NCBI GenBank assembly: GCA_050117845.1
Contig: JASFLY010000003.1
Location: 124,949-188,948, forward strand
Direction: 5' to 3'
Source of the DNA: Candidatus Zixiibacteriota bacterium
GTDB lineage: Bacteria; RBG-13-66-14; B26-G2; WVWN01
DNA: 64,000 nucleotides
In this document: positions 8,046 through 50,797 of the stretch, piece after piece
Layout of the letters: the number at the start of each line of letters is the position of its first letter
Numbering within the stretch: the first letter of the stretch is position 1
Program-made: the position numbers and the translations under genes
The notes under the pieces: model-generated
Database searches by the model: none
The model's input: only the letters and a program-made list of their open reading frames with translations
What the model was told of the DNA's origin: nothing

Positions 8046-8101
8046 CGCAATCTAACACCCCTCTCGTCAGGGCAAGCTTCAAGGGCAAAGGACGTGGGAC
8101 G

Positions 8102-8804: not shown

Positions 8805-9176
8805 ATGGCGAAGTCCCGCGCAGATACGCTCAGGGACATTTTAAAAGACCTCGAGGCTGCGACCCCCGATATCGAAGGGAGTGTCGTCGTCTCGGCCGAC
8901 GGCCTGGTAATGGCCAGCGCGCTTCCGTCGGACGTCGACGAAGACCGCGTAGCGGCCATGGCCGCCGCGCTGCTGGCCCTGGGAGACCGGAGTTCCACGG
9001 AACTCGACCGGGGCGACTTGAGTGAAGTTTTCGTAAAGGGCGAGAAGGGTTACATCGTCCTGATGGGCGCCGGCCGCGAAGCGGTACTCGGCGCTTTGTG
9101 CCGCGAAGACGCCAAATTGGGTATGATTTTCCTTGATATGCGTCGGGCGGCGAAAGACGTTGAATCGGTAGTATAG
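8805..9176 (+). CDS. Roadblock/LC7 domain protein (paralog B)
   Basis: AAAGGAGG RBS; 123 aa; ~85% aa identity to 6631-7002. Confidence 0.75.
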   Translation: MAKSRADTLRDILKDLEAATPDIEGSVVVSADGLVMASALPSDVDEDRVAAMAAALLALGDRSSTELDRGDLSEVFVKGEKGYIVLMGAGREAVLGALCREDAKLGMIFLDMRRAAKDVESVV

Positions 9177-9300
9177 CGTCTTATGCCGGAGATTGGCGGA
9201 TCCCCGGTAACGATTGACGAATTTCCCGGGTCCCCGAAAAGAAAGCTAAAACAGACAACCCCGGGACCAATGAGAGATAAGCTAAGGAGGTGCCTTATTA

Positions 9301-22958: not shown

Positions 22959-23836
22959 GGATTCCCGGTATCACAGGGTTAAGTTAACTTCGCCTGGCGT
23001 TCGGGTTATCTTACGATATTATTTTCCACTTTAATAATATATAATTTTACATAGCGCCGTCAAGGTTTTTACGCTCGTAAGCTTGGCAATAGAACGCTTT
23101 TATCTTCCGGCACTTACGACACGCGGCAGCGCCGCGGGCTCCCGATCCCGGCCTAACTCGCCGGGGCCTTCGTGAGCCGCAACCGAGGCGTTCCCATCGA
23201 AAGCTCCTCTTAGTTCAAACCGTATCATCAATACTCCTACCCTAATATATACGCGAATTCGGACCATCCGTTGCCGGAGCGCCGGAACGGATATTACGTA
23301 ATCCCCCGTTGCCTATTATAATCATTCCCGGCGTAGGCCGTAAGTGCTTAATTATCAATAGCATAGCTAGTATCGACGACAAGGGCTCCCGGGGCTAAAA
23401 TGGCCGCCGCCGCGCCAAGGTGTCACTGGACTTAATAAAAAGGCCGAGAAGCGCCGCCGATCCGGAATCTACCCGCCGCAACGCTGAACCGCTCTAACCG
23501 GATTCGCGGCAATCGCCTTTTCCCAACAGACTGTAACCTTACTTTATTGAAAATCGTCAAGTCATCGAACGCGGCGGCCTTCGTCGGAAATATAATGAAA
23601 ACTGGTATAAGAACTGAGTATTTTTATAACGGCCCTATGTCATAAATTGACATACTAGTAATATAATTATTGTACGAGAATTGGACGAGCCATAACTCTT
23701 TATGCTATAATAAATAATGGACAATTAAGTCGGCGAGGTATGACAAGATAAAACTTAGGTTAATCCTTTTTTGTAATGATGGGTTATACCCATAGGGAGG
23801 CTTGGTCTAACCGACTAAGTTAAAAGGACGGTATCT

Positions 23837-24829
23837 ATGTCCGTAAAGCGTGCGGAACGGCTCTTTCATATGATAAGTATATTAAGGACGGGACGGGGAT
23901 ATACCGGGGCCGAGTTGGCCGACGTCATGGGCGTTTCCCAACGGACGGTTTACCGAGACGTCGTCGACCTGTCGGGACTGGTGCCCATATATTACGACGA
24001 CGGGTACCGGCTCCTGTCCGATACTTTCCTGGCCAACCTCACTTTCACGCGCGAAGAATTGGTGGCCCTCAAGCTGGGCGTACAGATGCAGGCGCTGGCC
24101 GAAGCCTCTCACCTCGGCGCCGCGACCCAATCCGTCCTCGCGAAAATCGACGAACAGCTGGAACGCCGGTTCCAGGGCGAGGCGGACGACGGCGACGTAA
24201 TATCGGTCCACGTGAAGGCTCACCCGATGGGAGAGAAGACGGTGCGGGTCCTACGAGACCTGGAGGACGCGGTACGGCGCCGCCTGACCGTCGAATTCTC
24301 CTATTACACGCTCAGCCGAAACGAGAAGACCAAACGGACGGTCGACCCGTACGGCCTGACGTTCCGACGCCATAGCTGGTACCTGGTGGGCTATTGCCAC
24401 CTTCGCCACCAGGCGCGCGTATTCCGTCTCGATCGGATCTCCTCCGTTGCGGCCACGTCACACAAATTCGAACGGCCCAAGGACTTTTCGCTGGAAGAGT
24501 TCTTCGCCGATACCTGGGAGGTATTCGCCTCCGGCCCTCTGGCCGACGTCGCGTTGCGCTTTTCCCGGCACGCGGAATTCATCGCCCGGCCCACGCTGGG
24601 AGGCCGCGGCGAGTTCAACCTTGAACGAAAAAGCAATAAAATAGTATTTCGCGGAGAAGTCCCTGTAACGGACGAATTCGTACGTTGGCTTCTGACGCTT
24701 GGAGAGAACGTCGAGGTCCTCGAGCCGGCCGAACTCCGCGACAGGGTAGCTTCCCGCCATCGCTCCGCAGCCGAACTCTACGAGCCTATCGTCGCGGAGG
24801 CGGGTTCGCGAGGGATAAACACCGGGTAG
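23837..24829 (+). CDS. WYL-domain transcriptional regulator (HTH + WYL)
   Basis: AAAAGGACGG RBS; N-terminal HTH (YTGAELADVMGVSQRTVYRDV); WYL signature HSWYLVGYCHLRHQARVFRLDRI. Confidence 0.8.
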   Translation: MSVKRAERLFHMISILRTGRGYTGAELADVMGVSQRTVYRDVVDLSGLVPIYYDDGYRLLSDTFLANLTFTREELVALKLGVQMQALAEASHLGAATQSVLAKIDEQLERRFQGEADDGDVISVHVKAHPMGEKTVRVLRDLEDAVRRRLTVEFSYYTLSRNEKTKRTVDPYGLTFRRHSWYLVGYCHLRHQARVFRLDRISSVAATSHKFERPKDFSLEEFFADTWEVFASGPLADVALRFSRHAEFIARPTLGGRGEFNLERKSNKIVFRGEVPVTDEFVRWLLTLGENVEVLEPAELRDRVASRHRSAAELYEPIVAEAGSRGINTG

Positions 24830-24966: not shown

Positions 24967-25185
24967 GTTATCGATATTGTCCGTTTCCCTTCCGTTTTCC
25001 AAACCCTTACTAACGTCAAAGGCTTGTCCGAAGCCGTTACCAGGGCCGCCCCGTCGGCGTTCCACCGTACGACCGGGCGGACCGTATTGTAGCGCCGTTC
25101 CCCGAAAGCGGAACGGGCCGGCGAATAGGGCGGACGTAAGTCGCGCCCGACAATTTAAGATAGAAATTTGACAAGCGTAATGGGG

Positions 25186-25212
25186 GCCCGGGGATTACGG
25201 TCCGGGCTTTTT
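25186..25212 (+). promoter_or_regulatory. terminator/attenuator-like hairpin in the 5' leader of the RT-sensor gene
   Basis: GCCCGG-N10-CCGGGC + TTTTT ending 3 nt before the GAGGAGG RBS (25216-25222) and ATG 25231; a third CCCGGG at 25224-25229 allows alternative pairing over the RBS; TTGACA hexamer at 25168-25173. Confidence 0.4.
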
Positions 25213-25230
25213 CCCGAGGAGGTCCCGGGA

Positions 25231-28200
25231 ATGGACTTTTGTTCGGCGGACGACCTGGCGGCGGCGTGGCCCTACGCCCGTCGGGATGCCGCGGACAATT
25301 TCGTCTTCGACGTTATCGATTATGAAGACGTCAAACATAACCTGCCGCATATAATCCGGCGGCTCGAGCGCGAACTCCGGACGGACCAGTATAAACCGGC
25401 CCCCCTTCTGTCCGTCGATATACCGAAAAGGCCCTACACCATCCGCCCGGGCGCAGTCGTCTCTTTAATCGATTTAATCGTACTTTACGCCCTGGTCAGG
25501 AAAATAGCGCCGGCCCTCGACGCGAAATTATCGCCCGGCGTATTCTCCTACCGTTGGGTCCCCGAGGGAAAAAAGCCCAAGTGGTCCATCTTCTCGGAAT
25601 CGACCCAGGACGAATGCGGCATCGACGAAATCCTCCCCGCCGCGCCGTTCGCTCCGTACCCTCCTTTCGACGAGGCCGCGCCGGCGGGATGGTTCCGGGG
25701 GTGGATAGAATATCACGAGCGCGCGAAAGATTCCGCCGCCCGCTATAATTATTGCGCCGTCGGCGACGTTACAGCCTATTTCGAAAACGTCGCCGTGACG
25801 TCGCTCTTCAACCGTATAGGGGACCTCCTCGGCCCGGAGCACTCGGAAGCCCTCACCCGCCTCCGCCGCTTCTACGAGTATTGGGCCTGGCATCCAGCCG
25901 GTACGACCACGCGCGGCGAAGTCCTCCCCCAGGGCAACGATATATCGCTCTTCCTCTCGAATTTCTATCTGACGAAACTCGACGAGGCCATGGCGGCCGA
26001 AGTCCAGAACGACCCCCGCCGGTACTTTCGCTACGTCGACGACATCTGCGTCTTCACCGATACCCAGGAGCAGGCCCACCACTCCCTCCTCACCGGCGAC
26101 CGGGTGCTGCGCGATCTGGGGCTGAACCTTAATACGGAGAAGACCGGGATCGTTCCCACATCCCGCCTCTTCGACCGGGACGTGGAGCGCTGGCTCGAGG
26201 ACATGTCGCCCGTTACGGCCAACGCCGCCGAGAACGCCCGTGACTTCTTTAAGAACCGCTTCGACGCCGACGACGTCGAGAAGTGGGAACGCGCTTACCT
26301 GCGGGCCTTAACGACTCTCCAAAGAGCCGGCGACTGTTCGGTCGCCCCCGCCGCCCTTCAGGTTTTCCTGGAGAACCCCACGTACAAACTGCTGGTTAAA
26401 AATTTCGATTACCTTAGCTTCTTCGCGGAGCGTTTCCGATTCGGCGACGACGTCGCCCGCCGGATCACCGAGGGAACGTTCAACTTTCCATTCCACAAAC
26501 ACTACCTTTACCGCCTGGCTGCTTACTGCCGGCAGAACTCCCCTTCTCTCCGCGAGCAAGCTCTGGAAGAAGCCCGCGGCGACGCCGAATGGTACGTCCG
26601 AATCGCCGCGTTATACTGCCTGAACACGTTCAACCTTTCGCCCGACGAACTCGACGCCGTCGAGGAACTGGCGGGCAGCGAGGCCCACCCGCAAGTGGCC
26701 CGCGCCGCGCTCGTCGTTTTGCGACAACGGCCGGCCGACGAGGTCGCCTCGGCCGAGGATCATTTCCTCTTTACCACCGCGCCCGGCCAGGAGAACCTAC
26801 GCGAATATTTCTTCCGCCTCACGACCGAAGAGGAATTGGCGCGTGCCGTCCTCGAGCGGATCCGGAACCAGGAGGTGGCCTCGCGCGCTTTCCTGAACCG
26901 CCTCCACCAACTGGACCTCCTCAAGGGCAATCCCGCCGTCCGCGAGGAATACGGCCGGATCCTCGAACAAAAGATAGACGAATGCGACCCGGCCTGGACC
27001 CGCCTCTATAGCCGCCTCCGGCGCATCGCCGAACTGGCGTCGGTAAGTGCGTTGCGCGTTCGAAAAGCGCGCAAAATCGCCCGGGCGCAAGGCCACCTTC
27101 AAACCCTGCTGCGAAGCTCGCGCGAGGCCGTCCTTATAACCGGCCCGGGAGGAGACGTCCAGGTCTGGAACGACGCCGTGAACAAACTCCTCGGTTACGG
27201 CCGCCGCGAGGTCCGCGGGAAAGACGTGACCGACATCTTGCCTTCCCCCGGCGGCTTCGCGTCCGCGGACGAACTCACGGCATACGTCGCCGAGAACGGC
27301 GGATGGCTCGTCGAGGAGGCAACCCTTTACGAGCGGCCGGACGGCGCGCTGATTGACATTTCCACCACCTATTCCGTTATCACGGATCCCATTACGGGCG
27401 AGCCGGTCGGCCTCCTTATCCTTGTACGCGACGCGACCGCCGAAGTACGGGCCGCCCGCATCGAACAGGTACAAATCGCCACCGAACAAACCCTGGCCGA
27501 CGCCACGGTCCGGCTTGTCTCGCCGGAAGACCTGGACGCCGCCATTGAGCACACCCTGCGAGAGACGGCGGACGTGCTGAACGCGCAACGGGCCACCGTT
27601 TTCCGTTTCAGGGAAGGAACACTCGTCCTCGATGTAACCCACGAATGGTGCGCGCCCGGCGTCCCTTCGACCCGCGACTCCGGAGGAAAACTGGACCTCG
27701 GCGAACTCCCGGACGTCCGCGAGCGCTTGCATTCCGAGCGCGTCCTTTCGATATCGAACCTCTCCACTCCCAGCGCCGGGAGTCAACGGGTGATGAAGGA
27801 ACGGGGTGTCAAAGCGGCCCTCGTCGTCCCGTTCTATATTTCCGACGAGATGACCGGCCTAATAGCGTGCACCGATACGACCCGGCCTCGCGACTGGGCG
27901 TACGGCGAGGCCAATCTCCTCTTCGCCGTAACGGCGCTTATCTCGAAAGCTCTGGCGCGCCGGGAAGCGGAGGAGGAAAAGCTGGTGAGCGAGGTCCGCT
28001 ACCGGGCCGTCGTCGAAGACCAAACGGAGCTGATATGCAGATGGCGGCCCGACGGGACCCTTACCTTCGTTAACGAGGCTTACGGCCGGTATTTCGGGAA
28101 ATCGCCCGGCGAACTGGTGGGCCGGAGTTTCATCCATTTTATCTCGGAGGAGGATCGCGAAACCGTCGAGGCCGAATTCGCGTCTCTGGGTCCGGACAAA

Positions 28201-31200
28201 CCATCCTCGACGCATGAACATCGCGTTACGACGCCGGCCGGTGAAGTCCGTTGGCAGCAATGGACCAACCGCGTCATCATTGACGAGCACGGCGCAATAT
28301 CGGAATACCAATCCGTAGGCCGCGACATTACGGAGCGCAAACTCGCCGAGGAAGCCCTCGACTTCGAGCGCCGCCAACTCTTGTCGATCTACGATAGCGT
28401 CGAGGAAGTCGTTTACGTCGCCGACCCCCGGACCCACGAAATCATATACGCCAACGAGTACTTGAAATCGCTGTACGGAAAAGACATGGTAGGCGGCGTA
28501 TGTTACCGGGAATTCCAGGGGCTGGAGGCCCCCTGCGATTTCTGCACGAACGGAATAATACTCGAACAAAAAGGCAAGGCGTACCGTTGGGAATTCCACA
28601 ACGAAATACTAGACAAGTCCTTCCTGTGCACCGACCGGATAATTAAATGGCCCGACGGCCGGGACGCCCGGATCGAAATCGCCATAGACATCAGCGACCG
28701 CAAAACCGCCGAAGAAGCTCTGCGGAAGAGCGAAGAGGAATTCCGCGCGCTCGCGGAGCAGTCCCTCCAGGGAGTTACCCTCGCGACGGAGGATCGGACC
28801 ATCTTCGCTAATCGGGCTTTTTACAACATCACCGGCTACGAGCCGGACGAGATAATCGGCCTGACGCCGGGCGAAGTCGCCACCCTAATCATCCGGCCGG
28901 AGGACAGGGAAACCGTTAAAAAGAACTTCCGGCGCCGCATGGACGGAGAAAGCGCTCCTTCGCCGTACGCCGTGGGAATACTCCATAAGAACGGCTCCAC
29001 CCGGTGGGCCGAGTTATACTGCACGATCGTCGATATCGGAGGGCCGCCGGCGAATCTTACCACGCTCGTCGACATAACCGAACGGAAGCGGGCCGAGGAA
29101 GCGATCAGGGAAAGCGAGGTCAAGTACCGAACGTTGTTCGAGAACTCGCCGGACGCTCTTACGATACTCGACACCCGCGCGGTCATTAGCGACCTGAACC
29201 GGGCGACCGAAGAACTAACGGGGTACTCGCGGGAAGAGCTACTGGGGCGGCCCTTCGTAGAAATCCCGTCACTACGGGCCCAAAAACGGGCCCGCCTGCG
29301 GAAACTGCATTCCGACCTCGTCGCGGGCCGTGAGGCCGAACCGTACGAATTGGAAATCGTACGACGGGACGGGACCCGTCGATGGGTAAACGTTACGGTC
29401 GCCGCAATTAAAAAAGGGTCGGACCTTATAGGAACGCAGCTGATAGGCCGCGACGTTACCGAACGCAAACTCGCCGAAGAGAAGATAAAACGCCGTTTGG
29501 AATTTGAGGGCGTAGTCGCCCGCATCTCGTCGCGCCTCGTGGCTCCGGCGGACGTCGACCGGGCCGTAAACGAATCGTTGGCCGATATAGGCCGGTTCCT
29601 CGGAGCCGGCCGAGTACCACTATTCCTATTGAGCCGGGACGGCAGCGAGATGTCCATCAGCCACGAGTGGTGCGCCGCCGGCGTAAAAAGCCTGATCGGA
29701 GAGCTGCAAGGGGAGCCCACGTCGGGAATCCCGTGGTGGACGGACCGACTCGGCGGGGGGGAAGTGCTGCACATACCGGACGTATCGCGAATGCCGCCGG
29801 AAGCCGCCCCGGAACAGAAAATCCTGGAGGGACAGGGGATTAAATCCATCCTCGTATTGCCCGTCGAGATCGGCGGGAGTTTCAGCGGCTTCGTCGCGTT
29901 AGACAACGTCGAGGGAACCGGCGGCTGGGACGTGGACGACGTGGAACTCCTCCGCGTTATGGCCGCGGACCTCGGCCGGGCCTTCGAACGACAACGAGCG
30001 GAAAGCATCCTCCGGGAAAACGAGGAACGTTACCGCGACCTGGTGGAAGGTTCCCATGATCTCGTCCAAAGCGTCGCCCCCGACGCCCGCTTCCTATTCG
30101 TCAACCGGGCCTGGCTCAGGACGATGGGCTACGCCGAAAGCGAACTTCCGAACCTCACCCTTTTCGACGTTATTCATCCGGACTACGTCGGGCACTGCCA
30201 GGAATTGTTCCAGCATGTTATGCGCGGCGAAACCGTTAGCGATATCTCGGTCAAGTTCGTGACGAAGGACGGCCGCGAAATCATCCTCGACGGCACGGCG
30301 GGGCCGCGTTTCATGAACGGCGAAGTCGTGAGCACGCAGGGTTTCTTCCACGACGTAACCGAGCGTAAACGCGCCGAAGAAAAACTCAAGCGCCATAGCG
30401 AAGAAATAGCCGCCGTCAGCGAACTGGCCATAGAACTCGCCGGCGTCGATACGAGTGAAGAGATGTTCCCCCTTATCGCCCGCCGCCTCCGGGAGCTTAC
30501 CGGCGCTTTGGCCGTCCTGACGACGTCTTACGACTACGAGGCCGATGAATTGGCCGTCAACGCCGTCGAAGCCGACGTTAGCACCCTGGACAAAACGAAC
30601 GATATCCTGGGCGCGGAGCTTTCGACGATACGCTTCCCGTTTCCGATATATTCCCGCGAAGCCCTGGCTTCCGAACACGTCGCCGTAACGACGGGCATCC
30701 CCCACCAGGCCCACGCCGTCATTCCGAAAAACGCGTGCCGAGTAATCGAGGAAGCCTTCGGCATCGGCGACGTTTACATTTTAACGTTCCACTTCGGCGG
30801 GGACATGATCGGCGCTGCCGGCATTATTATGCAGCGAGAGACTACCCGGCCTTCCGTCGATACGCTGGAGGCCGCGGCCAACACGATCGCCACCACCCTC
30901 CGGTCCAAACTCGCGGAGGAAGCCCTGGTCGCCAGCGAGCGCGAGAAGACGACCATACTCGAATGCGTGGACGATATGGTCGTTTTCTGTAATTCGGAAA
31001 TGGAAACGGTCTGGGCCAATCCCGCCGCGGCCGCGTGGCACGACATGACGCCCGAAGAAATGGTAGGCCGCCGTTGCTACGAAGAACGCTACGGCCGGAC
31101 CGATCCCTGCGAGGACTGCGCGGAAGTCGAAGCGCTGAGAACCGGCGAACCCCGGGAAATCGAAACCACGTCCCCCGACGGCCGGTCATGGTACAACCGA

Positions 31201-34200
31201 AGCATACCCGTCACCGACGATTCGGGCGCCGTCGTCGGCGTCGTAACCACCACGCAGGAAGTAACGGCTCGTTACCACGCCAGGGAAACGTTAAAACAAC
31301 GGGCGACGAACCTGGCCGCGATAAACGACCTGGCCGTCGAGCTGGCGTCGGCTCCCTCCGCCGACGCGATCCGCCGGATAGCCGGCGACCGGTTGAGAAC
31401 GTTGGGCGGCGCCCTGGCCGCGATAGTCACGAGTTACGACGAAGAGGCCGGAGTTTTCGTCGTCCGCCATATTTCCGCCCCCGGCGACGTTTTCACCAAA
31501 GCCAATAAAATCCTGAACGGCACCGTTTACGACATTCGTTGTCCCGTTGACGACGACGCGTACGAAGAGATCCTGGCCCGCCGGGTTAAACCATACGAAG
31601 GCGTTTACGATCTGGCGTTGGGCGCCATTCCACGAAAATTGGCGACCGCCATCGAAAAAGCCCTCGGCCTCGGCGAAATAATCGCCGCCGGGTTCCGGCA
31701 CGGGGGACGCGTACTAGGCGGAATCTCCGTCGTCATGCCGGAAGGGCGCCCCGCGCCGGACGCCGAAATACTCGAAAACTTCGCCAACGTCGTATCGTCG
31801 GCGCTCGTCCGGCAGGCCGCCGACGAATGGCTCGTAAAAAGCGAACGGGAGAAATCGGCGATACTGGCGAACATGACCGGCCTCGTCGCCTACATGAAAC
31901 CGAACCTCGAAATCGTGTGGGCGAACGATGCCGCGGCCGACTGGGCGGGCCTCACGCCGCGAGAGATGGCCGGCCGGTACTGCTACGACGTCTGGTACGG
32001 ACGGACTAAACCCTGTAAGCGTTGTCACGTCGTACGCACGGTGGAAAGCGGCGAGGCCCAAACGTTCGAGACCGATTTCAGAGACGGCAGCGTCTGGCAC
32101 GTCCAATGCAATCCGGTACGTAACGCCGCCGGAGAAGTCGTGGGCATCGTCGAAACCTCTACGGACATCTCCGCCCGGAAACGGGCCGAAGAAAGCCGCC
32201 GCGAAACGGAAGCGCGGTACCGCGCGCTCGTCGATACCATGAATGATGGATTCATCGCGCACGACGAGCGGGGCGTAATCACGTACGTCAACGACCGTTT
32301 GTGCGAAATACTCGGCTTCCCGCGCGAGAATATCGAAGGCCGGCCGATGGACGACTTCCTCGATCGGGAAAACGCGGCAACCCTGCGGGAACGACGCCGC
32401 CTTAAAAAACCGCGGGCGGAAGCGTACGAACTTTGTTGGACAGGCGAAGGCGGCCGACGCGTATACACCGTAGTCTCGCCGGGAACCCTACCGAAGACCG
32501 AAGGCCGGTCCGCCGGCGGTTACGCCACGATTGCCGACATTACCGTCCGTAAACGAGCGGAAGAAAACCTCCAACGTCGAAGCGACGATATCGTAGCGGC
32601 CAACGGCCTTATCCTCGAACTCGCCGCGGCCCGCACGCCCGCGGAGGCCGCAGAGATACTTTGCGAAGGGTTGAAACGTCTCACCGAAGCACTCGCTATC
32701 GCCCTTTTGAAATACGACGTTAATACGCGCGAACTGGTTATCGAATACGTAGCCGCGGAAAACGACGTCAAATCCGAATCCGGGAAAATACTGGGGGGCG
32801 AACTGTCCTCGCTCCGCTTCCCGTTGGACCGAGCCGGGGCCGACGAACTCGTAAACCGCCGCGTCGCGGCAACGAAGGGTCTCCCCCGCAACGTTTACGG
32901 CGGTGTTCCGCGAAAGGACGTCCGCGCCTTCGAAGAAGCCCTGGGCTTGGGTGAAGTCTACGTCCTACCGCTCCAGCACCGGGAAGGACTGATGGGGACG
33001 GTCGCCATAGTGACCCGGGACGAAAACCCGCCCCTCTGGCCCGGAGCGGTTGAGGCCGTTGTCGCCGCCGCGGCGGCAGTACACGAACGCGTCGAAGCCG
33101 CCGAAAAACTCCGCGCGAGCGAGGAAACGGCGCAGGTCCTGCTGAACGCGCCCGCTAATTCGGCGTTCCTTCTCGACGCCGAAGGTACGATCCTCGCTTT
33201 CAACGAAACGACGCGATGCCGAACCCGCCTCGGCGCCGAAGATTTGCGAAGCGCGTCGTTGTGGGAAATCCTCCCGCCCGCGGTCGTCGACGCCCGGAAA
33301 GGCCAACTCGAAGAGGTCGTCCGTACAGGCCGCCCCGTCCATTTCGAAGAGAAGCGACCAGGCTCGGCCTTCGAAAGCTACTTCCACCCGATACGAGGGC
33401 CGCACGGCGTTACCAACGTCGCCCTATTTTCATGGCCCGTAACTCTCCGAAAAGAAATCGAAGAGAAACTGGCCGAGCCGAAAAAGGACTTCCGGCCCGC
33501 AGCCGAGGCTTCGCCGGTCGCGGCGTTGGTGCTAAACCACAGCGGGGGAATCTCCTGGGTTAACAAGGCCGCGCTAAGCCTATTCGGCTACGCCAAGAAA
33601 GGCCAAATGAAACGACTGCCGCTCCGGGAACTCTTCCACGCCGAGGACGAAAAAGAGATGGAGCGGGTAATGGACCTCGCGGCCGGTAGCGCTACGACGT
33701 ACGCCGGATTTACGGCTCTTACCGTCAACGGCGAAAGGCGGCCGACCGTCGCCCGGGCGGCGCCCGTATTCGAGGACGGTAAACGCCGGGGGGTACGGGT
33801 ACTCGTGGACGACGTAAGCGAACGCGTACGTACCGCGGAGGCCCTGGCCGCCGGCGTCGACCCGACGGAACTGCTGTCGACGCTAACGAGTTCTTACGCC
33901 GTTGTCGCGGACGGCAAGGGAGCCGTAACGGCCGTGAATACGAATACCGAAACGCGGCTCTGCAAACCGGCGGACGACGTTATCGGCACGCATTTCGAAT
34001 TTACCGTTCCGCGTGGGACGGAGGAGTCCAGGAAGCAGGCCTTCGAAGAAACGCTACGTTCGGGGAAAGCCGTGCTATTCGAGGACGAAACCACCGCCGC
34101 GACGTACGAGAACGACCTCTACCCCATACTAGACGGCGAGGGTAACGTCTCCCGCGTAGCGTTCTTCAGTCGCGACGTAACCGGGTCAAAAGCGACCGCC

Positions 34201-34656
34201 GAGGCCCTCAGCGCGACCGAAGCGAAGACCCGCCTCCTAGCCAACCAAATACCGGCGATTATTTGGACGACCGACGACGAACTCCGGATAACGTCCCTGC
34301 ACGGCGGCGGCCTGGCGTTTATCGAGACGCCGCCCGCGGAACTCCGGGGTAAAACGCTACCCGAGCTCTATGGCACCAACGAGGTCACGTCCACGGTCAT
34401 TGCGGCCCACCGGCAAGCGCTCCGGGGCGAAGTGGCGACTTACGACCAGGAAATCGGCTCTCGGACATTCCAGGCTACGGTGGAGCCGTGTAGGGACGGA
34501 GAGGGCCGCGTAGTCGGATGCGTCGGCGCGGCCCTCAACGGCCTGACGCTTTACGGCAAAATAAACGGTCCCGCCCGGACCGGCGGCGATCCCGGCGAGA
34601 AGTCAACGTCGCCGGAGTACCCGCCTCGACCCAAGCCGAGCTCGACGGGGTCCTAA
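25231..34656 (+). CDS. giant (~3141 aa) reverse transcriptase - PAS/GAF sensor-array fusion protein
   Basis: Start taken at ATG 25231 (GAGGAGG RBS 8 nt upstream) rather than TTG 25168; RT motifs in canonical order: NYCAVGDVTAYFENV, LPQGNDISLFLSNFYL, YFRYVDDICVF (YVDD at 26032-26043); then helical domain, then >=10 PAS units with DITERK(R/L)AEE-type linkers and ~5 GAF-like units; no kinase/GGDEF/EAL/HD/DNA-binding output. Confidence 0.85.
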   Translation: MDFCSADDLAAAWPYARRDAADNFVFDVIDYEDVKHNLPHIIRRLERELRTDQYKPAPLLSVDIPKRPYTIRPGAVVSLIDLIVLYALVRKIAPALDAKLSPGVFSYRWVPEGKKPKWSIFSESTQDECGIDEILPAAPFAPYPPFDEAAPAGWFRGWIEYHERAKDSAARYNYCAVGDVTAYFENVAVTSLFNRIGDLLGPEHSEALTRLRRFYEYWAWHPAGTTTRGEVLPQGNDISLFLSNFYLTKLDEAMAAEVQNDPRRYFRYVDDICVFTDTQEQAHHSLLTGDRVLRDLGLNLNTEKTGIVPTSRLFDRDVERWLEDMSPVTANAAENARDFFKNRFDADDVEKWERAYLRALTTLQRAGDCSVAPAALQVFLENPTYKLLVKNFDYLSFFAERFRFGDDVARRITEGTFNFPFHKHYLYRLAAYCRQNSPSLREQALEEARGDAEWYVRIAALYCLNTFNLSPDELDAVEELAGSEAHPQVARAALVVLRQRPADEVASAEDHFLFTTAPGQENLREYFFRLTTEEELARAVLERIRNQEVASRAFLNRLHQLDLLKGNPAVREEYGRILEQKIDECDPAWTRLYSRLRRIAELASVSALRVRKARKIARAQGHLQTLLRSSREAVLITGPGGDVQVWNDAVNKLLGYGRREVRGKDVTDILPSPGGFASADELTAYVAENGGWLVEEATLYERPDGALIDISTTYSVITDPITGEPVGLLILVRDATAEVRAARIEQVQIATEQTLADATVRLVSPEDLDAAIEHTLRETADVLNAQRATVFRFREGTLVLDVTHEWCAPGVPSTRDSGGKLDLGELPDVRERLHSERVLSISNLSTPSAGSQRVMKERGVKAALVVPFYISDEMTGLIACTDTTRPRDWAYGEANLLFAVTALISKALARREAEEEKLVSEVRYRAVVEDQTELICRWRPDGTLTFVNEAYGRYFGKSPGELVGRSFIHFISEEDRETVEAEFASLGPDKPSSTHEHRVTTPAGEVRWQQWTNRVIIDEHGAISEYQSVGRDITERKLAEEALDFERRQLLSIYDSVEEVVYVADPRTHEIIYANEYLKSLYGKDMVGGVCYREFQGLEAPCDFCTNGIILEQKGKAYRWEFHNEILDKSFLCTDRIIKWPDGRDARIEIAIDISDRKTAEEALRKSEEEFRALAEQSLQGVTLATEDRTIFANRAFYNITGYEPDEIIGLTPGEVATLIIRPEDRETVKKNFRRRMDGESAPSPYAVGILHKNGSTRWAELYCTIVDIGGPPANLTTLVDITERKRAEEAIRESEVKYRTLFENSPDALTILDTRAVISDLNRATEELTGYSREELLGRPFVEIPSLRAQKRARLRKLHSDLVAGREAEPYELEIVRRDGTRRWVNVTVAAIKKGSDLIGTQLIGRDVTERKLAEEKIKRRLEFEGVVARISSRLVAPADVDRAVNESLADIGRFLGAGRVPLFLLSRDGSEMSISHEWCAAGVKSLIGELQGEPTSGIPWWTDRLGGGEVLHIPDVSRMPPEAAPEQKILEGQGIKSILVLPVEIGGSFSGFVALDNVEGTGGWDVDDVELLRVMAADLGRAFERQRAESILRENEERYRDLVEGSHDLVQSVAPDARFLFVNRAWLRTMGYAESELPNLTLFDVIHPDYVGHCQELFQHVMRGETVSDISVKFVTKDGREIILDGTAGPRFMNGEVVSTQGFFHDVTERKRAEEKLKRHSEEIAAVSELAIELAGVDTSEEMFPLIARRLRELTGALAVLTTSYDYEADELAVNAVEADVSTLDKTNDILGAELSTIRFPFPIYSREALASEHVAVTTGIPHQAHAVIPKNACRVIEEAFGIGDVYILTFHFGGDMIGAAGIIMQRETTRPSVDTLEAAANTIATTLRSKLAEEALVASEREKTTILECVDDMVVFCNSEMETVWANPAAAAWHDMTPEEMVGRRCYEERYGRTDPCEDCAEVEALRTGEPREIETTSPDGRSWYNRSIPVTDDSGAVVGVVTTTQEVTARYHARETLKQRATNLAAINDLAVELASAPSADAIRRIAGDRLRTLGGALAAIVTSYDEEAGVFVVRHISAPGDVFTKANKILNGTVYDIRCPVDDDAYEEILARRVKPYEGVYDLALGAIPRKLATAIEKALGLGEIIAAGFRHGGRVLGGISVVMPEGRPAPDAEILENFANVVSSALVRQAADEWLVKSEREKSAILANMTGLVAYMKPNLEIVWANDAAADWAGLTPREMAGRYCYDVWYGRTKPCKRCHVVRTVESGEAQTFETDFRDGSVWHVQCNPVRNAAGEVVGIVETSTDISARKRAEESRRETEARYRALVDTMNDGFIAHDERGVITYVNDRLCEILGFPRENIEGRPMDDFLDRENAATLRERRRLKKPRAEAYELCWTGEGGRRVYTVVSPGTLPKTEGRSAGGYATIADITVRKRAEENLQRRSDDIVAANGLILELAAARTPAEAAEILCEGLKRLTEALAIALLKYDVNTRELVIEYVAAENDVKSESGKILGGELSSLRFPLDRAGADELVNRRVAATKGLPRNVYGGVPRKDVRAFEEALGLGEVYVLPLQHREGLMGTVAIVTRDENPPLWPGAVEAVVAAAAAVHERVEAAEKLRASEETAQVLLNAPANSAFLLDAEGTILAFNETTRCRTRLGAEDLRSASLWEILPPAVVDARKGQLEEVVRTGRPVHFEEKRPGSAFESYFHPIRGPHGVTNVALFSWPVTLRKEIEEKLAEPKKDFRPAAEASPVAALVLNHSGGISWVNKAALSLFGYAKKGQMKRLPLRELFHAEDEKEMERVMDLAAGSATTYAGFTALTVNGERRPTVARAAPVFEDGKRRGVRVLVDDVSERVRTAEALAAGVDPTELLSTLTSSYAVVADGKGAVTAVNTNTETRLCKPADDVIGTHFEFTVPRGTEESRKQAFEETLRSGKAVLFEDETTAATYENDLYPILDGEGNVSRVAFFSRDVTGSKATAEALSATEAKTRLLANQIPAIIWTTDDELRITSLHGGGLAFIETPPAELRGKTLPELYGTNEVTSTVIAAHRQALRGEVATYDQEIGSRTFQATVEPCRDGEGRVVGCVGAALNGLTLYGKINGPARTGGDPGEKSTSPEYPPRPKPSSTGS

Positions 34657-34719: not shown

Positions 34720-35985
34720 TCACGCGACCGGTGCGGCCGTACGAATACGTTCCTCTGTTGCGTCCGCGGTCAGGCCCTCGGCCGGGTCCGCCGTCGGCAG
34801 CAATCCGCCTTTCGTCGAAGCCAATACGTCGTAGTAGAGTTCCCGGATATCGCGGCCCAGGCGCTCGAGCGTAAAACGCCTCTCGTACGTCTCCCGGCCG
34901 AGCGCCCCCATCGACGCGGCCAGCGACGCGTCGTCAAGCGTGTGAGCCAGCGCCGCCGCCACTTCGCCGGCCGACCCGACGTCGGTTAAAAAGCCCTCGC
35001 GGCCGTCTTCCATGATTTCCGCGACGCCGCCCGCCCGCGCGGCCACGACCGGGACGCCGCGGGCCATAGCCTCCACTACGACGCGGCCGAAGGGCTCGGC
35101 CTTCACCGGCGTATGGACCAGGACGTCGAACGCCTCCATGGCCCGGGCCGCGCCGTCCAGTTGCCCCGGGAAACGGACCCGCGCTCCCAAACCCGCGCGA
35201 CGGACCCGGTCCAGGAGTTCCGCCCGGTACGAGTGGGCGCCGTAGAGCGGGCTCCCGATAACGACGAAATAAACGTCCGGGAAATCGGCCGCGAGGCGAG
35301 CCGCGGCGTCCAGGAAAACGTGTTGGCCCTTCCACGGCGCGAGTTGCCCCACGCAGCCCACGATTCGGGCGTCCGCCGGTATGGCCCACTCCTCCCGCCA
35401 CCGATCCCCGTCCCGGCGAGGATACGCCGGCGGACGGGCCACGGCGTTATACACGACGGCCACGCGCCGTCGCGCGCGACGGAACTGCCCGGCTACGGTC
35501 CGGGATATCGCGACGACGCGCTCGGCGCTTATAGCCGCCAAGAGGTCCATGATCCCCCGGGCGAAGCGACCCGGGAGAACGTCCCGCATGTGCCACACCA
35601 GCGGGACGTCCGAGGCCACCGCGGCGAGGGCCGCGAAGACGTGAGCTTTCTGGCTGTGAGTATGGATCAGGTGCGGCGAGGCCGCGTCTATAACGCGACG
35701 GAGACTACGGGCCGTCCCGAACGCCCGGAATACCTGGCGCCACCAGCTTACGGAAAGCGGAGAGATATCCTCGCGGTGAAAGGTTAACAGGGACGCGTCC
35801 GCCCGGTAATAGTAGATACGTTCGCCCCGCTCGGCCAGAGCCCGGGCCAACGGCCCCGGCCCCGGCACCGCGAACGATATTTCATAACGCTTGCGGTCGA
35901 AAGTCCCGGCCAACTCCATCATGCTCCGTTCGCCGCCGCCTACCGTAGTGGCGTGGTCGACGAATAACAACCGCGTCCTAACCAT
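34720..35985 (-). CDS. glycosyltransferase family 4 (GT-B)
   Basis: EPFGRVVVEAMARGVPVVAARAGG matches the GT4 E-x-FG...EAMA-x-G-x-PVV motif. Confidence 0.8.
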   Translation of the reverse strand: MVRTRLLFVDHATTVGGGERSMMELAGTFDRKRYEISFAVPGPGPLARALAERGERIYYYRADASLLTFHREDISPLSVSWWRQVFRAFGTARSLRRVIDAASPHLIHTHSQKAHVFAALAAVASDVPLVWHMRDVLPGRFARGIMDLLAAISAERVVAISRTVAGQFRRARRRVAVVYNAVARPPAYPRRDGDRWREEWAIPADARIVGCVGQLAPWKGQHVFLDAAARLAADFPDVYFVVIGSPLYGAHSYRAELLDRVRRAGLGARVRFPGQLDGAARAMEAFDVLVHTPVKAEPFGRVVVEAMARGVPVVAARAGGVAEIMEDGREGFLTDVGSAGEVAAALAHTLDDASLAASMGALGRETYERRFTLERLGRDIRELYYDVLASTKGGLLPTADPAEGLTADATEERIRTAAPVA

Positions 35986-35991
35986 ATCGGC

Positions 35992-37128
35992 TCACCTCGT
36001 ATCGCTGATGCGACCTACGACCGCCGCTTCGAAACTAGCCACTTGCGACGGCACGGTGAATTCCCGTAATACGCGCTCACGGCCGGCGTCGCCCAGACGC
36101 CGCGCCTCGCCCGGATACGTCAACAACGCCACTACCGCGGCGGCCACTTCCGCCGGACATTCCGGATCGACCAAAAGGCCCGTGTGGCCGTCGTCCACGG
36201 CGTCCAACGCGCCGCCGCACCGTCCCGCCACGACCGGCTTGGCGAAGAGCGACGCCTCCAAAAAAACCAATCCGAAACCCTCGTTCTTCTCGACTCCGTC
36301 CTCGACCACTCGTCGGTTCGGCATAACGAAGACGTCGCACGCCCGGTAGTACGGCGCCACGTCTTCCACTCGCCCCCAGAATACGACGTTGTCGGCCACG
36401 CCCGACTCCTCGGCGAGGTCGCGCAATCGGGCCTCGTCGTCGCCGGCCCCGACGATCCAGTAGTAACAGCGTGGGACACAACGGACTATGAGCGGCATGG
36501 CCCGGATCACGACGTCGTGCCCCTTGTAGCGCTCGTCGCCTCGCAGGCGCGCGACCGAAAGGATTACCCGTTCCCCCGCGTTCTTCAATCCCGGGCTCGA
36601 CCCCCCGTTGCCGGAAGCCTCCACCAACTCGGGCGCCACCCCCGGACGGATAACGTCGACGGCCTCCCGGGGCAGGCCGAACCGCGATACGACCAGACTC
36701 CGGCCGTAACGACTCCCGGTAAGGATCCCGGCGGCGCGCCTGAGCAGGAACGTGAACAGGCGTCGATATCGTTCCGGAGTTATCTCGAGCGCGTGCACGT
36801 AGACGAGATAGGGTTTGCGATATATGGTCCCGAGTAAGTACGCGGCCGGGGCCGCGGCGACGTGTCCGCAAAATAATACGTCGCAATCCGCCGCAAGCGG
36901 CGTCGCCGCCCGGGCCATGTTCGCCATCCGGCCCACCCGTGAGTCGGACGGGGCGTAACGGCGAACGCGGTAAATCAACCCGGCGTCAAACTCGTCGGCC
37001 CCCGCCGACGCCGGCGCCACCACCGTCACGTCGTTTCGGGCCGCGAGGCCTGCCGCGATCCCGGCCAGAAGCGTCTGCACGCCGCCCGGTTCGGGCGGGA
37101 AATCCGGAGTTAGGACGAGATAACGCAC
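35992..37128 (-). CDS. glycosyltransferase family 4
   Basis: EGFGLVFLEASLFAKPVVAGRCGG motif; N-terminal MRYLVLTPDFPPEPGGVQT typical of GT4. Confidence 0.8.
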   Translation of the reverse strand: MRYLVLTPDFPPEPGGVQTLLAGIAAGLAARNDVTVVAPASAGADEFDAGLIYRVRRYAPSDSRVGRMANMARAATPLAADCDVLFCGHVAAAPAAYLLGTIYRKPYLVYVHALEITPERYRRLFTFLLRRAAGILTGSRYGRSLVVSRFGLPREAVDVIRPGVAPELVEASGNGGSSPGLKNAGERVILSVARLRGDERYKGHDVVIRAMPLIVRCVPRCYYWIVGAGDDEARLRDLAEESGVADNVVFWGRVEDVAPYYRACDVFVMPNRRVVEDGVEKNEGFGLVFLEASLFAKPVVAGRCGGALDAVDDGHTGLLVDPECPAEVAAAVVALLTYPGEARRLGDAGRERVLREFTVPSQVASFEAAVVGRISDTR

Positions 37129-39020
37129 GGCACGGATTTAACCCTGAGGGTCGGGGGAAGGAATTCGTCGATAAACTGCCGGTGCCATAATTCCAGGCAG
37201 AACAGGTTCCACACCTGCTTGCCCCCGACGCCGCTTTCGAAATAGCGATCGAGGAGGGACGTTACCGCCCGGGCGTCGAAATAGCCGCGGCCTAGCGCCT
37301 CGGGCGAAGCGACGGTGTCGTATACCCAATCCCGCCGATACTCCCGCAGCCATCGGTCCACCGGTACCTCGAACGCGCGTTTTGGCCGTTCGACGACGGG
37401 CCGGGGTAAAAGGTCACGGGCGAATTCCCGCAGGAGTTTCTTCGTTATCCCGCGGCCCACGCGTTCCCGGTCGCTCAATTGGCTTACGTGCTCCACCAGA
37501 ACGTGGTCGAGGAGAGGCACGCGGGCCTCGATGGCCGTGGCCATGCTGGCCTTATCCACCTTCATCAAAACGTCGTCGACGAGCCAGGTTTTCATGTCCG
37601 CGGCCGTGAGACGTTGGAGGGGGCTCCGCCCGGCCCCTGCCCGGAAGTAGTTTTCGTAAAGGCGAGCCGCCCGGCCTCCCGCCGTCGTCGCGGCGAAGTC
37701 CTCGGTAAAGAGGGCCCGGCGTTCGGCCTCCTGGAAAATACTCAACCACGCCACGTTACGCGCCCAGGGCCGGGGAGCGGACGCGGCGAGCTTGGCGGCG
37801 TAACGCCACCACGGGTTGTCGGGCCGCCGGCCAGCAATTTCGCCGGCCGCGGCGGCGGCGACGTGCTTCGCGAACCCGGGAAGGTAGTGGTAGTAGTCGG
37901 CCGCGCGACTGAGGAGGTAACGGGGGTAGCCGGCGAACACTTCGTCGCCCCCCTCCCCCGTTACCAGTACGGACACGTGAGACTTCGCGTATTGGCAGAT
38001 GAGGTAAGTGGCCCAGGCCGCGGCGTCGGCGATGGGCTCGTCCAGATGCCAGATAACGCGGGGGATGGCCGCGAGGTCGTCGGGGCGCGCTTCCAGTTCG
38101 TGATACTCGTACGATAACGCCTCGGCGGTCGTCCGCGCGTATGCGGCCTCGCCCTCCTCCCCGGCGAAGCGGATGTGGAACGCGCGCACCGTCCCCGGGA
38201 GATACCGGCGAAGCAAGGCGGAAACGACGCTCGAGTCCAAACCGCCGCTTAGCAGCACGCCCACCGGGACGTCCGAAACCGTGCGGGTCTGCACGGCCTT
38301 GGCTATCAAATCGGGCACGTTTTCTTTCCCCGGGCCGTCGTTCGAGTGCCGCCCCGGCCCCCCGGGCGCCGGGACCTCCCAGTACCTGCTAACCCAACCG
38401 CCGTGGTGATTGATACGAAGCCAGTGGCCGCCGGGCAGTTTATATATACCCTTGAAGAGCGTCTTGGGCGCCGGGACGTATTGCAGCGTTAGATGGTCCT
38501 CCAGGGCCTCGGCGTCGACCTCCCGGCTTACGCCGGGCGCCAGCAGGAGCGCCTTTATCTCCGAGGCGAAATAGAATCTGTCGCCGACCCAGGTGTAGTA
38601 GAGGGGCTTGACCCCCAACCGGTCGCGGGCGATGAAGAGCGTGTCGCCGTCCCAGAGCGCGAAGGCGAAAATGCCGCGTAGCTTGCTAACGCAATCGCGG
38701 CCCAACTCCTCGTAGAGGTGGACGATAACCTCGGTGTCCGAGACGGTGCGGAAATGGTGGCCGCGGCGCCGGAGTTCCGCGCTGAGTTCACGGTAGTTAT
38801 AAATCTCGCCGTTCAGAACGACGGTTATACTGCCGTCCTCGTTCGAGATGGGCTGCCGGCCGCCCTCGAGGTCGATTATCTTCAGCCGCGTCATCCCGAG
38901 GCCCACCGGCCCGGCCGAGAAGGTCCCCCGGTCGTCGGGGCCGCGGTGATCCAGGGCCTCACACATCTCTTCCAGAAGGCCGTTCCGGCCGTCGTTGTAG
39001 TATCCGCAAATCCCGCACAT
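37110..39020 (-). CDS. asnB: asparagine synthetase (glutamine-hydrolysing)
   Basis: N-terminal MCGICGY (Ntn Cys2), PP-loop SGGLDSS, 636 aa; overlaps neighbouring gene ends. Confidence 0.8.
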   Translation of the reverse strand: MCGICGYYNDGRNGLLEEMCEALDHRGPDDRGTFSAGPVGLGMTRLKIIDLEGGRQPISNEDGSITVVLNGEIYNYRELSAELRRRGHHFRTVSDTEVIVHLYEELGRDCVSKLRGIFAFALWDGDTLFIARDRLGVKPLYYTWVGDRFYFASEIKALLLAPGVSREVDAEALEDHLTLQYVPAPKTLFKGIYKLPGGHWLRINHHGGWVSRYWEVPAPGGPGRHSNDGPGKENVPDLIAKAVQTRTVSDVPVGVLLSGGLDSSVVSALLRRYLPGTVRAFHIRFAGEEGEAAYARTTAEALSYEYHELEARPDDLAAIPRVIWHLDEPIADAAAWATYLICQYAKSHVSVLVTGEGGDEVFAGYPRYLLSRAADYYHYLPGFAKHVAAAAAGEIAGRRPDNPWWRYAAKLAASAPRPWARNVAWLSIFQEAERRALFTEDFAATTAGGRAARLYENYFRAGAGRSPLQRLTAADMKTWLVDDVLMKVDKASMATAIEARVPLLDHVLVEHVSQLSDRERVGRGITKKLLREFARDLLPRPVVERPKRAFEVPVDRWLREYRRDWVYDTVASPEALGRGYFDARAVTSLLDRYFESGVGGKQVWNLFCLELWHRQFIDEFLPPTLRVKSVPCVISS

Positions 39021-39093
39021 ATAATATCCCTAACGTCTTCCTGAGAACGCAAATAGCTTCCGTTTTTCTTCCCGACGGTAACAGGCCGGTATG

Positions 39094-40281
39094 TTAAAAA
39101 ACGTCATAAGTAAATTCTCCGGGTTCGACCCGCGCCCTAGCCGAAACCGCCGGCCGCCCCGTCGCAATAACACGTTCGAACGCCGCGGCGGCCCGGTCCC
39201 AGGTGAAGCGGCAGGCCGTCGCCCGGGCGCCCCGCTCCATCGAATGCCGGCGCTTCTCGTCCTCGAAGACGAGTTCCACCTTGGCGGCGATATCGCGGCC
39301 GTCGCGCTCGACGGCGAAGCCGTTGAACCCCTCGCACAAACAATCGTCGGCGCCGTTGACGCGGGAGAGGAGTACCGGCAGGCCGGAAGCCATCGCCTCC
39401 AGCGTGACCAAACTGAAGGCCTCGTAATAGGACGGCAATACGAAAACGTCCGCACCTCGGTAAATCGCGGCCACGTCCTTGCGGGAACCCAGGAAGTGGA
39501 CCCGCCGCCCCACGCCCACGTCTTCGGCCCGAGCTCGGTACGTCGCGTCGGGGCCTTTCCCGGCGATTACCAGATGGTAGCGCGAGGGCAGGAAGCGCAC
39601 GGCCTCGATAGCGTGCGACAGCCCCTTGAGCCACCACAGGCCGCCGACGAAGAGGACGACGCGGTCGTCCGCCGCGAGGCCCAGCGAATCCCGGAGCGCC
39701 GTTCTCGCCTCGTCCCGGCCGGTGTCGTTGAACTCGCCGCAGTCGACGCCGTTGTAAACGACGTTAAGCCTTTCGCGTTCGACCCGCGGATAATAGGCCG
39801 ACAGTTCGCGGGACGTTCCGCTCGAGACGCTGATAATCTCAGGACGCCGGCCGCGGAGCAGTCGTTTCTCGACCGCGCACGCGAGCGCGTACCACGCCTC
39901 CTCGCCCGCCCGCCTCGCCGGCCCCAGACGGACGCCGTTCCGCACCAGTTTGTGGAAAATGGCCCGCCGGCCGGCGTTGACGGTATGCACCACCATATAA
40001 TCGGCGCCCAGCGTGTTTATACCCTGGCCGATGACGGCGTCGAACTTCATCCGCTTGATCATCAACGTACTCAGGAGGGCGAAGGCCGGAACGCGGACGA
40101 GGGTCGGAAGGTCCGGCACGGGGACGCGGTGCCACGTTACGCCGGCGCCCTCGATGCCTTCGGCCGTCGCGGCGAAGACGTGGACGTCGTGCCTCGGGGC
40201 GAGCCGTGTCGCCAGTTCGTAGACCACGCGTTCGGTGCCGCCGCGCTTGTGAACGTCCTCGCATACGAGCGCGAGTTTCAT
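39094..40281 (-). CDS. glycosyltransferase family 4
   Basis: Start taken at internal ATG 40281 (GGAGGAAAA RBS; MKLALVCEDVHKRGGTERVV); YEAFSLVTLEAMASGLPVL motif; the 182-aa Arg/Gly-rich ORF-track extension is rejected. Confidence 0.75.
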   Translation of the reverse strand: MKLALVCEDVHKRGGTERVVYELATRLAPRHDVHVFAATAEGIEGAGVTWHRVPVPDLPTLVRVPAFALLSTLMIKRMKFDAVIGQGINTLGADYMVVHTVNAGRRAIFHKLVRNGVRLGPARRAGEEAWYALACAVEKRLLRGRRPEIISVSSGTSRELSAYYPRVERERLNVVYNGVDCGEFNDTGRDEARTALRDSLGLAADDRVVLFVGGLWWLKGLSHAIEAVRFLPSRYHLVIAGKGPDATYRARAEDVGVGRRVHFLGSRKDVAAIYRGADVFVLPSYYEAFSLVTLEAMASGLPVLLSRVNGADDCLCEGFNGFAVERDGRDIAAKVELVFEDEKRRHSMERGARATACRFTWDRAAAAFERVIATGRPAVSARARVEPGEFTYDVF

Positions 40282-41732: not shown

Positions 41733-41857
41733 TTTCGCCGGATTACCCTTTCTTCAAAACGATGCTGCTAATTCGCTCGATATCGTTTTATACGGGGCGC
41801 CTTGCCGTAGCGCATTAACGTGTTCACCAACCGAGTTCGCGTCCACGGCCCGCTCAA

Positions 41858-50737: not shown

Positions 50738-50797
50738 AGCATTACTCTCCTTTATACGCCGTATATTTCAAACTGGTGGGTACTGGGGGAACCGTAA

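Follow-up and report, generated by a model that had tools for sequence, protein, structure and literature searches.

Three paralogous modules in the sensor array of a reverse transcriptase protein

We analysed a window of 64,000 nucleotides (nt) from contig JASFLY010000003.1 of a Candidatus Zixiibacteriota metagenome-assembled genome, and in particular its gene at 25231..34656 (+), which encodes a protein of 3141 amino acids (aa) with an N-terminal reverse transcriptase (RT) and a long C-terminal sensor array. In the explanation that we consider probable as a whole, nt 30352-33477 of this gene encode three old paralogous two-domain sensor modules, each consisting of a helical linker, D(I/V)T-RKRAEE, a domain of ~183 aa that is termed X here, and a PAS domain; the array would have grown by ancient domain duplication together with later reshuffling or insertion of modules.

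The gene starts with the ATG at 25231 within an open reading frame (ORF) at 25168..34656 (3162-aa translation); it is annotated by NCBI as 'PAS domain S-box protein' and its sequence is identical to MGD8717875.1. The protein was divided into units at the recurring linker motif, of which the DNA encodes eight copies; around the cassettes, the DIT-type linkers recur at distances of 900, 906 and 906 nt. The resulting domain order is RT-alphaRep, PAS0, GAF_A, PAS1, PAS2c, PAS3, PAS4, GAF_B, PAS5, X1, PAS6c, X2, PAS7c, PAS8, X3, PAS9-12. The sensor array C-terminal to the RT comprises ~2500 aa with 13 PAS, two canonical GAF and three X domains.

A preliminary description of the window had pointed to three consecutive cassettes of ~250 aa, each opening with a similar helix, carrying a TSYD or KYD segment and an FG(I/L)G(D/E)(V/I)Y region, and followed by a PAS unit. 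All these motifs were found in one frame of the + strand: the helices IAAVSELAIELAG (aa 1747, nt 30406), LAAINDLAVELAS (aa 2049, nt 31312) and IVAANGLILELAA (aa 2475, nt 32590), TSYD at nt 30523 and 31429 and KYD at nt 32710, and FGIGDVY, LGLGEII and LGLGEVY at nt 30757, 31663 and 32941, respectively. Cassettes 1 and 2, however, measure 302 aa rather than ~250 aa. These two adjoin, whereas an extra PAS domain (PAS8, 32185..32556) stands between cassettes 2 and 3, so that the three are not strictly consecutive. A PAS is present after each X domain, but PAS9, the one following X3, lies beyond 33100, the end given for the cassettes. Its PAS character is no more than generic, the Cys motif is missing from it, and PAS11 is its nearest paralogue within the protein.

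The first module, on the + strand like all units of the array, begins with the linker DVTERKRAEEKL, which runs from the end of PAS5 into X1 (30352..30387), and continues with X1 (30394..30942, 183 aa, subtype a) and PAS6c (30943..31278; Cys motif CYEERYGRTDPCEDC at 31075-31119). The equivalent linker EVTARYHARETL at 31258-31293 leads into X2 (31300..31848, subtype b) and PAS7c (31849..32184; Cys motif CYDVWYGRTKPCKRC at 31981-32025). Further linker equivalents were located at 32164-32199 and 32536-32571, and the third module contains X3 (32578..33126, sister to subtype a) and PAS9 (33127..33477). The PAS of modules 1 and 2 is of a C-x11-C-x2-C subfamily, and the length of these two modules is fixed at exactly 302 aa. 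PAS6c, PAS7c and PAS9 matched Pfam PAS_4 with E values of 1e-13, 1e-16 and 1.5e-9 (51.8, 61.6 and 38.5 bits), all above the curated cut-off of 23.1 bits.

For self-comparison, sliding 160-aa segments were searched by BLASTP against a masked copy of the protein; a whole-protein self-BLASTP gave the self match only. By the segment search, aa 1717-2054 and 2019-2356 were collinear at an offset of exactly 302 aa, with 37-41% identity and E values down to 3e-30, and copy 3 (aa 2440-2621) resembled only the first ~180-190 aa of cassettes 1 and 2 (E 1e-17 to 1e-22). The MAFFT alignment of the three cassettes was gapless across the first ~275 columns. Within the protein, X1, X2 and X3 resembled only each other, at 32-35% identity (E 1e-23 to 1e-32; X2 versus X1, 33%, E 8e-32). 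PAS6c and PAS7c were 43% identical (E 1e-25 to 1e-32), while all other PAS pairs reached 25-32% with E values of at least 1e-13. The internal repeats thus exceed generic PAS similarity, as had been supposed, and these comparisons indicate that the cassettes are true paralogues, similar well above chance. The sensor array therefore grew by module repetition. Multi-sensor proteins normally grow by repeating PAS/GAF modules.

The copies are old and too diverged to disturb the assembly

Aligned without gaps, the DNA of cassettes 1 and 2 was 51.8% identical (54% and 59% at the first two codon positions, 42.4% at the third), compared with a background of 25.4 +/- 1.4% at other in-frame offsets in the gene. 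The longest exact word common to both was 11 nt, blastn between the cassettes gave only two matches, of 92 and 107 nt with 67-71% identity, and Tandem Repeats Finder detected no long-period array. Reads of any length in current use would keep these copies apart. The risk of assembly collapse raised in the preliminary description is therefore refuted, and at this divergence the long-read confirmation proposed there is unnecessary.

When the X domains were compared with those of other proteins, X1 was 44-47% identical to copies in P0005, P0002 and P0003, whereas the window's own copies were ~32-33% identical to each other. X2 reached 54%, 48% and 45% with copies in P0002, P0012 and P0003, and the best outside identity of X3 was 38%. 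In a neighbour-joining tree (183 columns, 100 bootstraps), X1 fell into a 'type a' clade (bootstrap 80) and X2 into a 'type b' clade (bootstrap 98) together with P0002_733, P0003_1289, P0012 and P0025, the last two of which are ordinary histidine kinases. X3 was sister to type a, with a bootstrap of 90 for the combined clade, and paired with P0003_1774, the last X of P0003 (bootstrap 51). Because the X copies cluster with domains of other proteins, the paralogues should predate the divergence of these proteins, and the tree indicates that the three X subtypes (a, b and the sister of a) were already distinct before the protein split from its orthologues.

These data bear on a recent duplication in place, in which one cassette of ~250-300 aa would have been copied twice in the gene, leaving near-repeats that could collapse or be mis-counted. 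Such an event would fit the adjacency of the cassettes and the identical, indel-free length of cassettes 1 and 2, and relatives with recent X duplications at 68-77% identity do exist. It is nevertheless highly improbable in view of the low DNA identity, particularly at third positions (42%), of the 11-nt longest common word and the negative Tandem Repeats Finder result, and of the X comparisons, in which X1 and X2 stand in separate clades and the nearest neighbour of every copy belongs to another protein. What survives of the sensor expansion by duplication proposed earlier is the repetition of a paralogous module; a recent tandem triplication in place does not.

At least two X copies were found in 34 of 151 carriers, 14 pairs being directly adjacent, and X-only arrays had an exact period of 180 aa. 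Within-protein X identity ranged from 77% and 68% (P0027 and P0002) down to ~20%, with the window copies at the median of 31.5%. Judged from these copies, X duplication is still an active process in the family.

Module order differs among orthologues

The window protein has the order X1-PAS6c-X2-PAS7c-PAS8-X3 in this region. The corresponding orders are PAS7c-X2-X1-PAS8-X in P0003, X1-PAS8-PAS-X in P0005 and X1-PAS-X2 ... PAS6c-PAS-X in L007, and the order in P0002 also differs from that of the window. Common to the X-bearing orthologues is a core of an a-type X, PAS8 and a terminal X, to which X2 and the Cys-PAS units are variable additions; PAS8 is kept beside the last X in P0003 and P0005 with 50-54% identity. 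The differing order points to shuffling or insertion of modules besides duplication. In P0002 (aa 915-1042) and in the L007 ORF (aa ~1977-2110), a Cys-rich segment of ~130 aa that matches no unit of the window protein was located between X2 and a PAS5-like unit.

It is quite conceivable that X2 and its Cys-PAS were captured: an ancestral X(a)-PAS8-X(c) core would have acquired them from another multi-sensor gene through recombination, and the cassettes would then resemble each other as members of one family, not as local copies. An X1-type domain, PAS8 and a C-terminal X are present in all X-bearing orthologues, while P0005/L002 lack X2 and the Cys-PAS, and P0003 and L007 have them at other positions; moreover, the X2 clade holds domains of the ordinary histidine kinases P0012 and P0025, and an X followed directly by a Cys-PAS occurs also in the unrelated protein P0042. 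However, no other PAS of the protein is as close to PAS6c as PAS7c is, or the reverse, cassettes 1 and 2 have the equal length expected from copying of whole units, and the orthologue sample is too small to polarise gains versus losses.

X is a predicted divergent GAF-fold domain

None of the three X domains gave a Pfam match at E <= 10 or an NCBIfam match at E <= 1. An AlphaFold2 (AF2) model calculated from the three-copy alignment reached a predicted local distance difference test score (pLDDT) of 75 and a predicted template modelling score (pTM) of 0.77, with the secondary-structure order alpha-alpha-beta-beta-alpha-beta-alpha-beta-alpha-beta-beta-alpha. Its top Foldseek matches were bacteriophytochrome PAS-GAF structures (probability 1.00, TMq ~0.70 to the DrBphP GAF). 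At the level of profiles, hhalign aligned X collinearly with the two canonical GAF domains of the protein over 147 columns but only weakly (probability 23%, E 9e-4), the Pfam GAF model PF01590 was reached by 3 of 43 X-family members scanned singly (best E 1.6e-6), and a search of PDB sequences with the X profile gave only marginal GAF matches (E 0.02-1). According to the model, X is a divergent GAF-fold domain, a six-stranded antiparallel sheet flanked by helices, which sequence libraries essentially miss. The name 'sensor cassette' given to the repeats earlier calls for qualification: the repeated domain would be a GAF fold unseen by Pfam, and the array has no kinase and is attached to a reverse transcriptase.

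X has the same fold and secondary-structure order as the GAF domains of the PF01590, PF13185 and PF13492 clan, notably the chromophore-binding GAF of phytochromes, and it is likewise placed between PAS domains. In contrast, it is only 10-18% identical to solved GAF domains, shows no conserved Cys, and does not significantly match the motifs of the bilin pocket, the X profile alignment scoring below zero across the FPADDIP region of phytochromes. Across the 43 family members, no conserved Cys or His column was observed. The hallmarks that they do share are YD at the end of strand beta-1, G.IP, LG.G..Y and one invariant Gly, G140. The motifs picked out in the preliminary description match these and are thus hallmarks of the whole X family.

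An exhaustive HMMER search of 1.84 billion cluster representatives (50% clustering) retrieved 2556 X-family proteins at E <= 1e-3, 1111 at E <= 1e-10 and 34 at E <= 1e-30. A word-indexed homologue search with the X alignment had returned nothing, which must be a sensitivity artefact given the 2556 proteins found by HMMER. Eight of ten scanned carriers were PAS-rich kinases with HATPase_c, seven of them also with HisKA or HisKA_3, and in none of the ten did a Pfam domain cover the X stretch itself. The window protein resembles 'PAS domain S-box' multi-sensor histidine kinases in its long tandem PAS/GAF array, its DIT-type helical linkers and its repeated paralogous modules; X is mostly found in such kinases, whereas the sole enzyme domain of the window protein is the N-terminal RT. 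As a large predicted GAF-fold family absent from current domain libraries, X merits a model of its own, and so does the Cys-motif PAS subfamily.

Alternatively, the X domains might sense no ligand and serve the array only structurally, by dimerisation or as spacers that fix its geometry. G140 is the single invariant column across the 43 members, and neither Cys nor His shows any striking conservation; dimerisation is a known role of GAF domains, and X-only arrays keep strictly to 180 aa per module. On the other hand, YD, G.IP and LG.G..Y are kept across distant proteins, suggesting a functional site, and the family occurs almost only in signalling proteins. We regard a purely structural role as unlikely.

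A Cys motif marks a PAS subfamily

The C-x11-C-x2-C motif was present in PAS6c, PAS7c and the more distant PAS2c, where it lies 5' of the cassettes (CYREFQGLEAPCDFC, 28501..28545, +), and absent from PAS9. In the 167 proteins fetched, every PAS scoring above 100 bits against the PAS6c/7c profile keeps G..CY-x8-PC-x2-C, so that C-x11-C-x2-C is a conserved feature of the subfamily. These Cys-motif PAS domains often accompany an X domain.

The NreB motif of S. carnosus consists of four Cys. In B. licheniformis, the NreB PAS carries a [2Fe-2S] cluster on CX2CX11C (PMC13478379), and the OrpR PAS from Desulfovibrio a [4Fe-4S] cluster on C52/C61/C65 with the spacing C-x8-C-x3-C (PMC8359166). With NreB, the Cys-PAS units share three conserved Cys in the PAS core and the spacings x11 and x2, in reverse order. 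By analogy, the motif may form a metal or Fe-S site; this is the leading guess and should be taken as a lead, not as a result.

Two other assignments were considered and rejected. The closest solved sequences to the Cys-PAS were LOV domains (E 8e-4 to 5e-3), and its first Cys aligns with the photoactive Cys of LOV; the flavin motif GXNCRFLQ is absent, however, the Cys-PAS having GR(R/Y)CY(E/D) without RFLQ. Attachment of a c-type haem through the CKRCH of PAS7c was dismissed as a family feature, as CxxCH was seen only in PAS7c and its P0003 counterpart (CPACH); in other members CxxC is followed by A, D, P or T. The haem assignment is also disfavoured because the RT-sensor protein appears to be cytoplasmic.

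The array is fused to a UG21 reverse transcriptase

The N-terminal part of the protein, encoded by 25231..27087 (+), comprises the RT and an alpha-helical repeat region. Its first 530 aa matched PADLOC RT_UG21 with an E value of 5.8e-72 over profile positions 2-482 of 503, Pfam RVT_1 was found at aa 184-329 (E 3e-14), and the catalytic motif YVDD is intact (aa 289, nt 26032-26043). The HEAT_2 match in the helical-repeat region was weak (E 3.5e-4) and below cut-off. From these matches, the N-terminal part is best described as a UG21 class 1 UG/Abi RT and as the sole catalytic domain of the protein. No kinase, cyclase, helix-turn-helix (HTH) or other DNA-binding family was among the Pfam and NCBIfam matches of the 3162-aa translation. 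The 3141-aa protein has neither HisKA/HATPase output nor GGDEF/EAL and is thus no sensor histidine kinase. Between 22900 and 35000, Rfam gave no meaningful structured RNA next to the RT.

UG21 has been described as a class 1 UG/Abi RT with HEAT-like repeats and without known function, its role in defence being called inconclusive (Mestre et al. 2022, PMC9226505). Fusions to PAS or GAF are not mentioned for UG21 in that work, and a literature search for PAS domains in prokaryotic RTs returned no papers in the library consulted. The window protein has the full-profile match, YVDD and the HEAT-like helical repeats in common with the UG21 group. It differs from the UG21-like RTs described or retrieved, which stand alone (about 570-620 aa, 36-44% identity), in the ~2500 aa of PAS/GAF domains added to the RT.

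The combination of RT, PAS0 and GAF_A with variable sensor modules recurred in at least six other, independent assemblies, in proteins of 1177 to ~3053 aa. The RT identity to the window protein was 62% in P0003 (1951 aa, three X copies), 61-64% in P0005, P0167 and L002 (1745-1748 aa, two X copies), 67% in L007 (~3053 aa, three X copies) and 44% in L010 (1177 aa, 0 X copies); the partial sequences L001 and L009 reached 64-67%. The RT-sensor fusion is rare and conserved, and since the same RT-PAS0-GAF_A fusion is seen in independent assemblies, it is not an assembly artefact.

The giant ORF could in principle be a chimera in which an RT gene was joined during assembly to an unrelated PAS gene, the cassettes then stemming from an ordinary truncated sensor. 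The source is a metagenome-assembled genome, and stand-alone UG21-like RTs of ~620 aa exist. Yet the fusion is found in P0003, P0005/P0167/L002, L001, L007 and L009 with RTs 61-67% identical, and in L010 at 44%, and the gene has kept its surroundings: the sigma-54 regulator upstream, the WYL gene where seen, and the glycosyltransferases downstream. A chimera is therefore barely credible.

A possible signal-regulated reverse transcriptase

The old paralogous modules could work as follows. Each X and PAS domain would bind a small ligand or cofactor, and signals would pass along the fixed-length helical linkers of a parallel dimer, as is established for other PAS/GAF arrays; the strict periods of 302 aa and 180 aa fit the need to keep helical register. 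By conjecture, the integrated signal would then control the activity or the oligomeric state of the N-terminal RT. On a more tentative level still, the GAF-like/PAS cassettes might be the input side of a signal-regulated RT whose 18 PAS/GAF-type domains sense small-molecule or redox signals, pointing to a physiological, non-defence role of a UG/Abi RT; we consider this a rather doubtful though possible outcome. If true, the inputs of such an RT would include phytochrome-like GAF folds as well as Cys-PAS units with a possible metal or Fe-S site, and the number of X domains (0, 2 or 3) would tune the inputs by lineage.

Several points weigh against the account of old paralogous sensor modules given here. 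At present sampling, the X2 and Cys-PAS units may stem from duplication within the gene or from acquisition of modules of other genes. The neighbour-joining tree rests on 183 columns, and the pairing of X3 has a bootstrap of only 51. The AF2 model of X was built on an alignment of three sequences, and the loop of its putative pocket (residues 102-112) has a pLDDT <50. For the whole cassette, AF2 gave a poor model (pLDDT 64, and <50 in the Cys loop), in which Cys geometry and domain packing were unreadable. The order of the Cys in the Cys-PAS is mirrored with respect to NreB (C-x11-C-x2-C versus C-x2-C-x11-C), with no significant sequence match between them. Ligand, cofactor and signalling direction of the array are predicted only. 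In classic sensors, finally, the signal flows from N to C towards the output domain; the sole enzyme of this protein is N-terminal, an unusual arrangement opposite to that polarity, and control of the RT by the array is for this reason a conjecture.

The duplication of cassettes is in itself ordinary and matters little; the interesting part is their context in an RT fusion. UG21 is without known function, and a version joined to sensor domains, at a chromosomal locus with conserved neighbours, makes the regulation of such enzymes accessible to testing.

Genomic neighbourhood and further features

A sigma-54 enhancer-binding protein is a conserved neighbour 5' of the RT-sensor gene. In the window it is encoded at 17979-22958 (-), as a 1659-aa protein with Ser/Thr kinase, AAA_16, TPR, GAF, sigma-54 activator and HTH_8 domains; L002, L009 and L010 likewise have a sigma-54 activator with GAF (in L010 also with TPR) upstream of their RT-sensor gene. 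Directly upstream of the RT-sensor gene stands a gene for an HTH-WYL-WCX regulator (23837-24829, +), which occupies the same place in L001, L002 and L007. Regulators of the WYL type typically accompany defence and RT systems. On the other side, an exopolysaccharide-type cluster (34720-43828, -) converges on the RT-sensor gene. It has three GT4 glycosyltransferase genes, with synteny in L002, L007 and L010, beside genes for an asparagine synthase, a Wzy-like O-antigen ligase and a sulfatase. By its surroundings, the locus resembles part of the vertically inherited chromosome more than a mobile defence island.

Just 5' of the GGAGG ribosome-binding site (25218) and the ATG (25231), a GC-rich hairpin followed by TTTTT was noticed at 25186-25212. 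Such a hairpin might serve as terminator or attenuator between the WYL and RT genes; Rfam gave nothing at this hairpin, and the upstream intergenic DNA was not conserved among the window, L001 and L002.

Within the array, a canonical 300-aa unit of GAF_B and PAS5 lies directly 5' of cassette 1 (29470..30372, +; Pfam GAF_2 at aa 1462-1607, PAS5 versus PAS E 1e-13) and follows the same two-domain plan, GAF-type plus PAS, as the cassettes. Two further old internal duplications were seen in the protein: GAF_A+PAS1 (27445-28347) matched GAF_B+PAS5 (29470-30372) with ~28% identity (E 3e-16 to 9e-21), and PAS9-PAS10 (33127-33822) matched PAS11-PAS12 (33820-34557) with 27.5% identity (E 2e-15).

Elsewhere in the window, two ORFs of 301 and 575 aa (14775-15680 and 15762-17489, both -) had no Pfam match at E <= 0.001. 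The G+C content dipped to ~0.53 at 8001-10000, 22001-24000 and 50001-52000, against a background of 0.60-0.66. The dip at 22001-24000 takes in the 878 nt that separate the divergent genes of the sigma-54 and WYL regulators, where five promoter-like sites were counted compared with 1.5 expected.

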